Shown here: positions 33,663 through 38,565 of the stretch, in pieces
Numbering within the stretch: the stretch's first letter is position 1
Layout: each line of letters opens with the position of its first letter
DNA from: Somniosus microcephalus
Taxonomy: Eukaryota
DNA: 64,000 bases
NCBI GenBank assembly: GCA_052327205.1
Contig: CM126220.1
Coordinates: 33,046,001 to 33,110,000 of the forward strand
Direction of reading: 5' to 3'
Translations under genes and position numbers: made by a program
Notes under the pieces: generated by a model
What the model was told of the DNA's origin: nothing
The model's input: only the letters and a program-made list of their open reading frames with translations
Databases searched by the model: none

Positions 33663-36600
33663 TGTAGTGTATGTACCCGTTTACCTTTAAGGGAACTATT
33701 GAATGTAACCGTTCGCCTTTAAGAGCACTATTTTAGGTGTGGCACTATTTGTTGGCTCATGTATACTGTAATACCGATAGTGACCACACCAGTATATAAG
33801 GGTTGTGATACGTTAACTAGGGCAGATTCGCCCGAACCTCTGAATAGTAAAGACCTGTTTTATTTGTTAATCTTGGAGTCTGTGTATTATTTGCAATACA
33901 ACCCACAGACTTTACAATGGCGACGAGGCCGATCGTACCCTGCGGCAACAGTAGTTCCTAAGCAACTAAGGAGCGTTGAAGTGAGGCAACCGCCTTCGTC
34001 GTGCTGCTGGAAGAACACACGAGGCTGCAGCAACAGACAGGAAGCAGACTAGCAACGAAAGTTCATCAGCAACAGGCACAACTACCCTTTTACCACGGTG
34101 CGGAGTGCGTCGATCAACTAACAAAAGAAAGCAACCGGCGACCGCAACGACTGTGAGTAGGGGAAAGTGTGGAAAATATCCGGAGGATAAGGGCAGTGAC
34201 CACCACGGTCGAGGGGGTGAAAAAGGCCGGACAGCGACCGGGATCACAAGGCGCGGTGGCGATAAATAAATAAATAACTAAATAACCCGCGAAGAATCAG
34301 CCGCAGCCGGGGAGGAAAGGGCCGGACGGCGGGAGGTCGGGGAGAGGCGTTTGAATCCGCTGAGCGAGAGCCCGAAAGGGAGCGAGCAAGAGTCGCTTCG
34401 AGCGGGAGGCGCTTCGCGAGCCAGCGATCGCACCAGCGATAAGGGCCGAGAGCCGCTTCGGGCGAGAGGCGCAGCGCGGGCCATCGATCGCATCCACTGA
34501 TAAGGGCCGGGCCGCTTTGAAGTGAGGGGCGCAGCCGGGCCATCGATCGCAATCCCTGATAAGGGCCGCACTCGGGCTGGTAGGGCAGAGTCGGCAGACA
34601 CTGAAGGCACGAGAGCTGCGGTGAACAGCGTGGGCCATCAATCGCGGCGGAGATAAGGGCCGCACTCGGGCTGAAAGACAGCGTCGGGGGTCGGGTGAAG
34701 ACCGCCAAGCGCGGGAAAACCGCCATTGAAGTGGGCGGGGAGAGCGAGAAGCGCGGGAAAGCCGCCATTTTTCGCGGGGAAACCGCTGGGGAAGAAGACA
34801 GAAGCGGGAAACCGCCATCTTAGAAAATTAATAAGAATTTTCAGAAATGCTGGTGTGTTCTCAAGAAGAGAGGAAAAATAAGAATAAGTAAAGCAATACT
34901 TGTGTTGTTCTCAAGAAGAGAAGAAGATGCCTAAGCGAGGAAATATTAATGATTTTAATGCTGAAATAGAAGACTGGGCCACGTATGTGGAACGCATAGA
35001 AATATATTGCGTAGCCAACGAAATTGAGGATGACGACAAGGCAATAACTTTGTTATATTCGATGGGAGCAAAAACATACGGGCTCTTGAAACATCTAATA
35101 GCACCAGTTAAACCAGTGGACCAGACCTTCGAAGAGATCGTAGCAGTGCTGAAGGATCACTTGAACCCCACACCGTTGATGCTGGCTGAACGATTTAAAT
35201 TTTACGCAAGAACCCAGAGGAAAGATGAAAGCAATGCGGAATACTTAGTCGAACTGCGTAAGCTAGCGAAATACTGCCAGTTTGGAGGGAATTTGACAGA
35301 GGCGCTGCGGGACAAGTTCGTATGCGGCTTGGCCAAAGAAGGAACGCAGAAGCGACTTCTGGAAGAAAACGACCTCACACTGGACAGGGCTGTCCTCATA
35401 GCTTCATCGCACGAAGCCGCAGCGAAAGGAACGGCGGAAATGCAGCTAAAGGCGGCGGCACTCGGGGTGGACCAAATTACTGCAAGCACTTCCAAATGCT
35501 ACCGTTGTGGAAAGACAACGCATGACCAGAATCAGTGCTGGTTTAAGAACCAAGAGTGCAGGAAATGTGGCAAACTGGGTCACATCGCGAGGGTATGCAG
35601 GTCCGGAAAGAAGACCAACAAGCAAAGGAAGCCACCACCACAAGAAAAGTACAACAAGGTACACCAGGTGGCTGAAAAGAGTTCAGACGAACAAAATTCG
35701 GACTCAGACCCAAACAGCCAGGAGCTGGATAGTCTGAGAATCCATAATGTGGGTAAAGTAACTGATCTACAGACGATCTGGGTCACACTAAAAATAGCTG
35801 GAGTCCAAGTACGAATGGAGCTGGACACGGGATCAGCTGTATCAGTCATCAACCAAAAGGACTACCACCGGCTATTCTCTCACATACCCTTAAGAAATAC
35901 CAAGTTCGTATTACAGACATACACGGGGCATAACGTATACCCCATGGGGAAAATAAGAGTCAAGGTGAGAGATAGGGGTAAAGTACACCCAAGAATGAAT
36001 TTGTACGTACTACCTGAGGGAGGACCACCACTTCTAGGACGGGAGTGGATCAGGAAAATAGACATGGAATGGCACTACCTACAAACAATGACGAGTGAGG
36101 ACTCGGTGCAGACAAGCAGCTCAGACTCCGAGCCGGAAGACGATAAGTCCAGCTTACGTATGAAAAACAAGGTTAACATGAACTCACGGACTAAGGTTGG
36201 AAAATCGATGGCGTGCATAAAGACAGAGAATTCTGAGTCTGTTCAAGTTACAGACATATGCATTACGGAAGAACACCGGGCTCGAACTCAACGTTATTTC
36301 AAAGTACGACAACAATTAGAACAATTAAGTTACCGCCTCGTACAAGAGATGAAAACAATGAAAAAGTTCTATGACACCGAATGGGAGAGTCTGGAAAGAC
36401 AACAGAACCTACTGGCTCAAGCAGAGAGCGACCATAGAGCCATCGTGACCAATTACCGATCACATCTCCCTTATGATGTTCAGGAGTTAGAATATTTGCA
36501 TGATCTAGAGATACAGCAGAAGGGCAAACCACGCTACACTGAGGATTTTGTTCTGCAATTGGAGACGGAGCTAGTGCAGGCAAGGTTAAGAGAAGTTGAA

Positions 36601-38565
36601 TCGCAGTGTGCTCTTAAGGAGATGCAGAAACAAATCTTGGACATGGAAAAGAGAAACGCTTCTTTACCTGATGTGAATAATGTGGACATGTTGCGAGAGG
36701 GGATTATTGAGGCGAAACTGAAAGAAGCTAAGCAAAGGATGTTGGAACTTGAAACACAGAACCAAATCAGCAGAAATCAGCTATGTCGAGCAGAGAAGGA
36801 GTGCTATGGTCTACATGAGAAGGTGCAATATCTCTCAGCCCAGAATAAGGGGCTACTCACTCAGTTAAATGAGAGTAAACGGGAAATGGCTGAGATAGAC
36901 TGCAAGAATAAAGAAGAATTGATGGCAGTGAGACTTCGAGAGGCAGATAGCATAGCAGCCTTGGCTGAACTCCAAAAGGAAATTGCAAAAAAAACAATTG
37001 CAGAGGAATCTTCAGGAAGCCAGGATTTTATTCCAGTCCTTCTCTACGACTCCTTACAAGCAGAGTGTGAGAAGTTGAAAGAACAGTATGGACAGGCCCA
37101 GGCTACAATGCTGGAGGGGATTAACTCGGCAACCCCCGAAAAGCTAGTTTCAGTAGAAGCATATGAACAACTAAAGGTTGAACATGAGCAAGAAGTCCAA
37201 AGGCTGCAGGAAATGTTTGATGAGCTCCAGGCCAAGGCTGCCTCATCGGTAAAGATTCCATCCATAGATGAAACATTAGTGGTGGAAGAGGAGAGGGGTT
37301 TGGAGCTCTCAAAAGTTATTGAAATAGCTGAGGTTGCAACACAGACTGAGAAGATGGCAGCAGAGCAACCCTTGGATACCAAAAGTACGCTGACTCACGT
37401 CAATGTAGAACAACAGACCGCTGAAACAGCTGCTCCGGTAGAGGGATTGAATAGTCCGATCAATCAATCTCCAAAGGAAGTTGAAGTATTAAAATCACAA
37501 ATGAGGTCATTAGTAAACGACTTGCTGAAAGCTCAGAAAAAGCTGGATGAAGAGGTACACATGAAGAAGTCTCTTCAGGAAAGATGTCTGGATTTGGAAC
37601 AAGAGCTGGCTAACGTCCAGCTGGGTATGGAGGAAATAGACGACCCTCTCGCTGGCCTAGCTCAGGACGACACCGAATATTACCATGACCTGGTGGACTA
37701 CACCGAATATTACGATGTCCTGTCCTGCCCAGCTTGTAACTTCGACTCCCAAAGTGCAGAAATCATGGAGGAGCACCAAAAGTCTACGGAACATCGGGAG
37801 AAGGTGGCTCTACTACGGAAAAAGGAGGAAGAGAAGGAGGAACTGCGCATGCAGCTGGCAGCTGACAGTGGAACCCAGAGAGTCTCCAAGAAGCAGAAAA
37901 GGAAAAGTCGAAACAGAAGATGACCCATCTGAACCATTATCACCTCTACCAGATCACACACGTGGTCCCTCCGAACGGAGCCAAATCAGTTCGGAAGTTC
38001 AAACTGTTAAATCCATGGAAGGACTGTTGAATGAGTCACTCCAGCAATGTGAACCGACTACACCACAGAGACTGAATCTGTGAACTGTTTTCCGCAGAGA
38101 CTGAATCTGTGATCTGTTTTGACATGAAGTTATATATGTTATTATGTTATGTTAAACATGAAGTTATATGACGTTGACTCCATCGAGAGTATATCTGTAA
38201 ATTGTTATATGACGTTGACTCCATCGAGAGTATATCTGCAAACTGTTTATATAAAGTTGAAGATTGTATGTTTAACGGGATTCTGTAAGTAAAAAGCTAA
38301 AAAGGGAGGATTGTAGTGTATGTACCCGTTTACCTTTAAGGGAACTATTGAATGTAACCGTTCGCCTTTAAGAGCACTATTTTAGGTGTGGCACTATTTG
38401 TTGGCTCATGTATACTGTAATACCGATAGTGACCACACCAGTATATAAGGGTTGTGATACGTTAACTAGGGCAGATTCGCCCGAACCTCTGAATAGTAAA
38501 GACCTGTTTTATTTGTTAATCTTGGAGTCTGTGTATTATTTGCAATACAACCCACAGACTTTACA
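33663..38565 (+). mobile_element. Very young non-autonomous Gypsy LTR element B, with pol replaced by host-like sequence
   Basis: LTRs at 33663-33916 and 38312-38565 (254 bp, no differences seen by eye, TG..CA), TSD ATAAG, PBS tggcgacgagg (tRNA-Ser-like) at 33918 and PPT aaaaagggagga before 38312. Confidence 0.95.
34927..37923 (+). CDS. Chimeric Gag-protease fused to a host-derived coiled-coil/zinc-finger mosaic (998 aa from ATG 34927)
   Basis: Uninterrupted ORF: Gypsy Gag (EDWATYVERIE, LRDKFVCG), two CCHC knuckles (35497-35598) and an aspartic protease (ELDTGS...LLGREW, about 35776-36072). No RT, RNase H or integrase motifs. The remainder resembles STK10, ANKRD24, EVI5, OPTN and DNAJC21 segments. 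Confidence 0.88.
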   Translation: MPKRGNINDFNAEIEDWATYVERIEIYCVANEIEDDDKAITLLYSMGAKTYGLLKHLIAPVKPVDQTFEEIVAVLKDHLNPTPLMLAERFKFYARTQRKDESNAEYLVELRKLAKYCQFGGNLTEALRDKFVCGLAKEGTQKRLLEENDLTLDRAVLIASSHEAAAKGTAEMQLKAAALGVDQITASTSKCYRCGKTTHDQNQCWFKNQECRKCGKLGHIARVCRSGKKTNKQRKPPPQEKYNKVHQVAEKSSDEQNSDSDPNSQELDSLRIHNVGKVTDLQTIWVTLKIAGVQVRMELDTGSAVSVINQKDYHRLFSHIPLRNTKFVLQTYTGHNVYPMGKIRVKVRDRGKVHPRMNLYVLPEGGPPLLGREWIRKIDMEWHYLQTMTSEDSVQTSSSDSEPEDDKSSLRMKNKVNMNSRTKVGKSMACIKTENSESVQVTDICITEEHRARTQRYFKVRQQLEQLSYRLVQEMKTMKKFYDTEWESLERQQNLLAQAESDHRAIVTNYRSHLPYDVQELEYLHDLEIQQKGKPRYTEDFVLQLETELVQARLREVESQCALKEMQKQILDMEKRNASLPDVNNVDMLREGIIEAKLKEAKQRMLELETQNQISRNQLCRAEKECYGLHEKVQYLSAQNKGLLTQLNESKREMAEIDCKNKEELMAVRLREADSIAALAELQKEIAKKTIAEESSGSQDFIPVLLYDSLQAECEKLKEQYGQAQATMLEGINSATPEKLVSVEAYEQLKVEHEQEVQRLQEMFDELQAKAASSVKIPSIDETLVVEEERGLELSKVIEIAEVATQTEKMAAEQPLDTKSTLTHVNVEQQTAETAAPVEGLNSPINQSPKEVEVLKSQMRSLVNDLLKAQKKLDEEVHMKKSLQERCLDLEQELANVQLGMEEIDDPLAGLAQDDTEYYHDLVDYTEYYDVLSCPACNFDSQSAEIMEEHQKSTEHREKVALLRKKEEEKEELRMQLAADSGTQRVSKKQKRKSRNRR

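Follow-up and report, generated by a model that had tools for sequence, protein, structure and literature searches.

Plant elements of the TR-GAG type have long terminal repeats (LTRs) and keep gag with its protease, and they lack reverse transcriptase (RT) and integrase. In animals, the accessible text of PMC5131818 describes LTR-mediated retroposition, in which partial, spliced host sequence replaces the internal open reading frames (ORFs) between LTRs, with microsimilarity at the switch points, multi-gene chimeras and further rounds of copying. Circular RNA (circRNA)-derived pseudogenes are retrocopies with a reversed exon-exon junction, formed by a mechanism termed 'mysterious'; mouse circRFWD2 has 33 copies, with flanks enriched in LTR sequence and MMERVK10C-int named in a figure legend (PMC4897178). 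Human EVI5 itself gives rise to circEVI5, hsa_circ_0013162, a 339-nt circle of three exons according to the accessible part of PMC13414913. Here we analyze a 64,000-nt stretch of the Somniosus microcephalus genome (GCA_052327205.1, contig CM126220.1, positions 33,046,001 to 33,110,000, forward strand; hereafter the window), which holds a 4,903-bp non-autonomous Ty3/gypsy-type LTR retrotransposon at 33663-38565 carrying a piece of EVI5. We consider it likely that this piece is a reverse-transcribed, back-spliced EVI5 circRNA (exons A-E, 678 nt) that sits in frame within the element.

A sequence-only reading of the window had proposed that an EVI5 segment at 36535-36987 was captured from an mRNA and shortened by a repeat-mediated deletion. 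The EVI5-like peptide is indeed present in frame there, inside ORF 34888-37923, and the capture spans 36501-36986, starting 34 nt earlier than proposed. Its identity also held, as all named homologs among the 120 matches listed of 2,723 are EVI5 or 'EVI5-like' (best E 3e-64), with sharks and rays at the top. When the block deleted from the element was used as a query, it matched C3 and C31 only (3 matches; 88/88 candidates scored), which located the host gene. We identify the C3 locus of EVI5 as the donor, with 88-96% DNA identity per exon; a paralog lies on C31, and the DNA comparison covers the C3 locus. Three residues are common to host and element EVI5 and differ in 5/5 aligned shark and ray EVI5 proteins; the capture is therefore lineage-specific.

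Within 200 kb of the C3 locus, we matched five host exons, A to E, of 135, 141, 159, 147 and 96 nt, all in phase 0 and summing to 678 nt. Of the introns that separate these exons (2.2, 34.9, 2.0 and 5.7 kb), none is present in the captured piece, and the joints of the piece lie at splice sites, so its source was spliced RNA. No EVI5 exons beyond A-E matched in the 200-kb host locus, and the piece contains neither introns nor a poly(A) tail. Alignment to the host locus, as suggested by the sequence-only reading, therefore places the segment across the exon-exon junctions of five exons and not within a single exon. The proposed mRNA origin stands insofar as the source was spliced; a plain linear source is not supported, as the end of the last exon precedes the first and the length is that of one circle. 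The copies do not look like L1-type processed pseudogenes, since they have one common junction inside LTR elements and are not independent poly(A)-tailed insertions, each with its own target-site duplication (TSD).

The evidence for a circle lies in the order of the exons. The final 16 nt of exon E (16/16) directly precede exon A in the window, and this 16-mer is unique in the 200-kb host locus, whereas eight other exon ends and an intron end tested at the same position gave exact suffixes of just 0-4 nt. Downstream, the exon E match halts at nt 80, one base before the 16 nt that stand upstream. The piece therefore represents one full turn through A-E, opened between E80 and E81, and its length of 16+135+108+147+80 = 486 nt equals 678-192. 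We roughly estimate the chance of such a 16-mer match among 20 exon ends at 5e-9 to 3e-7. The peptide HDLEIQ was also considered as the end of a normal skipped-isoform exon and was ruled out (10/16, compared to 16/16 for the exon E end).

The 192 nt missing relative to the host exons correspond to a block of 64 aa that is present in 120/122 stored proteins, the two exceptions being translations of the element itself. A block is thus absent between repeats, as the sequence-only reading had it, with the crossover about five codons before the KLKEA-KQRM boundary that it gave. The repeats encode AKLREA (exon B) and AELKEA (exon C) and are ~14/18 nt alike as read by eye; the crossover falls at exon B nt 64-66, in this imperfect repeat. 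The deletion is microhomology-mediated. Alternative splicing was ruled out as its cause because its ends are not at splice sites.

The EVI5 segment is nested in another back-spliced capture, a feature absent from the sequence-only reading. Its flanks derive from an ankycorbin/ANKRD24-like gene on C13 (named from protein matches, with the paralog ambiguous), in which a late 66-nt exon, at 36418-36483 of the window, is joined to an earlier exon, implying a circle of 1,743 nt. In an intron of the ankycorbin-family gene, we found an element with 98.4% identical LTRs that has the same ankycorbin-family junction without EVI5, and these empty-site joints are present in reads or contigs of 4/4 sequencing runs compared, RNA included. 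EVI5 was therefore inserted without loss or duplication of the recipient. Another relative contains STK10-like and optineurin (OPTN) cargo without the ankycorbin-family piece. We note that donor genes or their paralogs contain relatives of the element, including three gag-pol types in EVI5 introns (L038-L039, L052-L053), relatives in the ankycorbin-family gene (L054-L057), where the empty-site element occupies an intron within the span of the circle, L090 and L095; this may be a mere reflection of high copy number.

Related elements show further captures. A PKK-family search of the genome gave 16,569 candidates, 150 of which were scored (a first-look count, not a copy number), and 20, selected for long or varied ORFs, were examined. 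The PKK-bearing relatives inspected are gag-protease elements with cargo that we take to be STK10-like, with protein matches in support. The top PKK match on C3 showed no match to the element. The STK10-like piece of L085 matches five host exons on C8 (1,245 nt), in permuted order, at 98-100% identity; both of its ends lie in one exon, with an 11-14 nt overlap, and a splice donor is joined to an upstream acceptor. The reversed junction is evident as a DNA pattern in 17/20 relatives, in protein only in 2 more, and is lost in 1. The STK10-like capture is 98-100% identical to the host in the L085 branch and 76-93% in the window's branch, so the amount of accumulated change differs greatly between branches. 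Comparison of an autonomous-type relative with the host revealed 7-8 nt in common at each end of the ~2.6 kb that the STK10-like piece replaced.

In the sister element L077, a 462-nt insert derives from a gene on C12, presumably BAZ1A-like, that lies ~46 kb downstream of a WAC-domain exon. The insert has a back-splice junction and the length of one turn; a 3-nt core is present at both sides, nothing was lost from the recipient, and 45 nt are deleted internally. The implied circle is 507 nt by hand, or 508 nt counting one extra base in the host assembly. Atlas searches for the BAZ1A-like insert returned nothing. At L141 (host C12, offset ~47255-47260 from 104293000), the host exon is one base longer than the element copy and apparently out of frame; the extra base is possibly an assembly error.

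Of the five captures that were compared with host DNA, 4 are back-spliced, and 3 of these have the length of one turn; for a random exit point, the rough chance of a one-turn length is ~0.02 per case. The reversed exon-exon junctions of EVI5, ankycorbin-family, STK10-like and BAZ1A-like pieces all lie at true splice sites, and each donor exon is single-copy in the host stretch examined. Three of the circles have lengths divisible by 3, as probably has the fourth; this is required for the ORF to survive. These joints also speak to the idea that pieces of linear mRNA were rearranged later inside the element, by duplication, deletion or intramolecular RT jumps, in a way that imitates back-splicing. 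Microhomology rearrangement is frequent in this lineage: stretches of 192, 150 and 45 nt have been deleted, and parts of gag and cargo have recombined. However, those deletions lie inside exons, while 4/4 reversed joints connect a real donor end to a real acceptor end, and the EVI5 16-mer match is very improbable by chance on the estimate above. We consider later rearrangement highly improbable and already largely refuted.

The EVI5-bearing form is abundant in the 6.45-Gb genome searched. A DNA search with the element gave 1,530 candidates, and all 40 that were scored are near 100% identical. A 29-mer of the EVI5 left junction had 1,955 genome matches (1,009 + 946; ≤2 mismatches) compared to 0 for a reversed control. 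Among the first 30 junction copies, on C1, the EVI5 match ends at E80 in 30/30; 23 are of the 192-nt-deleted form, 6 lack an additional 150 nt, 1 carries a different loss and 0 retain the block. The 22/30 sampled copies passing an ungapped-length filter differ from host EVI5 at 8-32 of 486 nt, and the window copy differs at 28/480. LTR pairs are 98.4-100% identical in 7/8 EVI5-bearing copies, the eighth having no pair. One EVI5-bearing copy with 100% identical LTRs (L131) lies inside a short-period tandem satellite, and C1 also has copies ~4.5 kb apart.

The stretch is present in six sequencing runs under three organism labels, and no RNA run was listed among the indexed runs that contain it. 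Two RNA runs from one study (X7 and X8; 24% and 31% examined) cover the whole ORF at 88% likeness, with strongly sense-biased reads in X7 and mixed strands in X8. The window subfamily's own letters are a minority in RNA (8/185 reads at 36686 in X7), and some of the read depth across the EVI5 part may come from host mRNA. An element-specific joint, that of the 150-nt deletion, is found in 16 and 6 RNA reads in the two runs; EVI5-bearing elements are therefore transcribed.

Several observations weigh against a circRNA source. The ankycorbin-family piece is far below a full turn in every copy seen, and the OPTN piece is colinear, without a reversed junction. The EVI5 junction has no in-register shared core, only a 4-nt match displaced by one base, which sets it apart from a typical template switch. 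Few inverted repeats occur in the introns that flank the EVI5 circle, with 3 matches against the 50-kb downstream intron and 0 in its first 6 kb, although this is a weak test. Neither a genome search with the deleted block nor the 30 sampled copies yielded a copy retaining the 192 nt, so the complete circle is unseen in any element. No host back-splice joint was among the joints listed for the two partly examined RNA runs, and the host circRNA was not directly observed. The five tested captures were not blind, as the BAZ1A-like insert was picked on suspected permutation, and at least 4 other inserts stand outside the tally. Finally, a linear RNA template in which exons are repeated would also yield one unit for the STK10-like and BAZ1A-like pieces if RT came back at the microhomology core where it had left.

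Such linear templates, produced by trans-splicing or tandem genomic duplication and copied with ordinary template switching, would carry an identical reversed junction. They would, however, be required in four unlinked genes, no duplicated exon block exists in the host stretches examined, and the EVI5 piece comprises exactly one unit without a shared core that could steer the return. We therefore regard linear exon-repeat templates as unlikely.

For circRNA templates, we propose that during minus-strand synthesis in the particle, RT would jump from element RNA to a co-packaged host circRNA, round it once and then rejoin element RNA. The stop after a single turn could come from RNase H cutting the template behind RT, a step drawn from general RT biology. 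Spread would be limited to captures that leave the ORF open, presumably accounting for its retention. Because relatives exist without EVI5 and without the ankycorbin-family piece, the STK10-like circle would have come first, displacing RT-RNase H-integrase, followed by OPTN, the ankycorbin-family circle and EVI5 within the latter; the BAZ1A-like circle would have entered a sister branch.

A circle could also have been copied first to circular DNA, or joined as RNA, and have entered by a single crossover instead of two RT switches. This suits EVI5 and the BAZ1A-like insert, which are pure insertions with no recipient loss and 0 or 3 nt shared, but not the STK10-like piece, which replaced ~2.6 kb at two different microhomologies and therefore requires two switches. 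Template switching is, moreover, the documented route for LTR retrocopies in the accessible text of PMC5131818. The single-crossover route, which we consider quite unlikely, keeps the circRNA source and differs in the joining step alone.

The element that received these captures has paired TG...CA LTRs, a 5-bp TSD (4-6 bp expected), a primer-binding site (PBS) and a polypurine tract (PPT), as is typical of Ty3/gypsy elements (Table 1). The tRNA matching the PBS-like motif is presumably Ser. The 5' leader (34389-34800) contains GC-rich 60-bp tandem repeats and shorter repeats that differ between subfamilies. A single gag-protease ORF, 34888-37923 (1,011 codons stop to stop, with an ATG at 34927), holds the EVI5 piece. 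Its Pfam matches are a zinc knuckle, an aspartic protease and a weak Retrotrans_gag; RT, RNase H and integrase gave no Pfam match in this ORF. The pol order protease-RT-RNase H-integrase is present in the autonomous-type relative L095, which is 87% alike to L085 over gag-protease, and absent from the window element. The lineage may be Mag-like. With gag and protease, no RT or integrase and recent multicopy spread, the element fits the non-autonomous gag-retaining (TR-GAG-like) class, and it would make its own Gag and protease while borrowing RT and integrase from autonomous relatives.

Table 1. Features of the EVI5-bearing element, in window coordinates.
Feature	Position	Strand	Remarks
TSD, 5 bp, left copy	33658..33662	+	right copy 38566-38570; read from flanks
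5' LTR, 254 bp, TG...CA	33663..33916	+	identical to 3' LTR
PBS-like TGG motif	33918..33928	+	
gag and aspartic protease	34927..36090	+	Retrotrans_gag weak match, CCHC knuckles; first part of 998-aa ORF ending 37923
STK10-like capture, eroded, first part	36093..36407	+	76-89% to host exons on C8; PKK match
Ankycorbin-family late 66-nt exon, back-spliced to first 17 nt (17/17) of earlier 1,512-nt exon	36418..36500	+	
EVI5 exon E nt 81-96 (16/16), back-spliced to exon A	36501..36516	+	
EVI5 exon A, exon B nt 1-65, 192-nt deletion, exon C tail	36517..36759	+	
EVI5 exon D and exon E nt 1-80, completing one turn	36760..36986	+	
Ankycorbin-family 1,512-nt exon, resuming at nt 18	36987..37289	+	
OPTN capture, three exon pieces, normal order	37294..37637	+	83-91% to host on C17
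Acidic stretch, C2H2/matrin-like zinc finger, basic tail	37638..37914	+	leads only
STK10-like capture, eroded, second part	37915..38035	+	host exons upstream of those in first part; mostly past stop codon
PPT	38299..38310	+	
3' LTR, 254 bp	38312..38565	+	identical to 5' LTR

In the window element, the eroded STK10-like remnants flank the later cargo in permuted order. A homolog search with ORF aa 405-540 found nothing among 164 candidates, and the donors were reached via relatives instead. For the region with the zinc finger (Table 1), an atlas search gave generic zinc-finger clusters only, and its donor was not found. Relatives contain additional inserts. L074 and most of L066-L075, L079 and L082 carry, past the STK10-like reversed junction, about three Ig I-set domains inserted in frame, titin/obscurin-like by PDB matches and presumably obscurin. 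In L066, L073, L074 and L075, a ~150-aa insert that begins like a CxxC...H zinc finger and lacks Pfam matches follows right after the protease, and L077 and L081 have a further ~50-aa insert near the ORF end. Elsewhere in the window, 22890-26725 is an LTR element unrelated to the first, whose LTR pieces are 97-99% alike and which has a broken gag-pol and a truncated integrase, and 54352-57606 contains a 1,084-codon pol ORF (RT, RNase H, integrase) from another gypsy-like element. Positions 26782-30407, 39761-40921 and 52006-54417 contain two LINE-type RT copies inverted relative to each other (91% alike), an ORF that encodes a DDE_Tnp_4 transposase and another for a LINE-type RT.

Ratios of nonsynonymous to synonymous change (dN/dS) of 0.03-0.10 against relatives show strong purifying selection on gag-protease, and constraint on the cargo appears weak. 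Against the host, dN/dS is 0.61 for EVI5 (p 0.23), 0.55 for the ankycorbin-family piece (p 0.17) and 0.28 for OPTN (p 0.012), the only significant value among the cargo pieces; two cargo comparisons with the empty-site element gave 0.39 (p 0.23) and 0.49 (p 0.10). As these estimates have no transition correction and include change on the host branch, we make no claim of selection on cargo protein. Against the empty-site element, dS is 1.2 for gag and 0.11-0.17 for the common cargo, suggesting that gag and cargo lineages have recombined.

Most likely, the cargo is filler that is tolerated under weak constraint. A more speculative proposal, which we hold only tentatively, is that host circRNAs, each taken up for a single turn, are this lineage's main source of new sequence, making its thousands of copies a fossil archive of germline circRNAs and a natural read-out of circRNA retrotransposition, and that the coiled-coil cargo behind Gag-protease is translated. 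It might then aid the element in particle assembly or trafficking or, being 94-99% identical to host genes, act on EVI5, STK10, OPTN and others via small RNAs or dominant-negative fragments. The mechanism with circRNA templates is testable and implies germline entry of circRNAs into retrotransposon particles. The captures also show serial exon shuffling inside an amplifying element, with ~2,000 EVI5-bearing copies. In this lineage, cargo copies would make gene-family expansions look larger than they are and complicate the calling of circRNAs.

The literature searched, which excludes repeat databases and most subscription papers, yielded no account of this family or of serial, nested, in-frame one-turn circle capture. 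Both circRNA retrocopies and gene capture by LTR elements are already known. Compared to TR-GAG-type plant elements, as we understand their definition, the host here is an animal, and the ORF runs on through ~600 codons of host cargo. Human hsa_circ_0013162 shows that EVI5 forms exonic circles in a vertebrate, although in the accessible part of PMC13414913 this is not the 678-nt five-exon circle that we propose. Host EVI5 exons D, E and F sum to 147+96+96 = 339 nt, the same length as human circEVI5, a likeness by length only. The templates of LTR-mediated retroposition are mRNAs in the accessible text of PMC5131818, where no word of the main text begins with 'circ', whereas most templates tested here are permuted, and two captures are insertions without recipient loss. 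The circRNA pseudogenes of PMC4897178 are alike in their reversed exon-exon junctions and LTR association. Here, in contrast, one lineage took in four circles, which lie nested and in frame within a gag-protease ORF that stays open; empty-site and parent-type elements reveal the junctions, lengths of one turn are seen, and EVI5 alone accounts for ~2,000 copies. The writing of circRNAs back into genomes was left open by that study (PMC4897178), and in this lineage the states before and after can be compared at base level, in one genome, for four genes.

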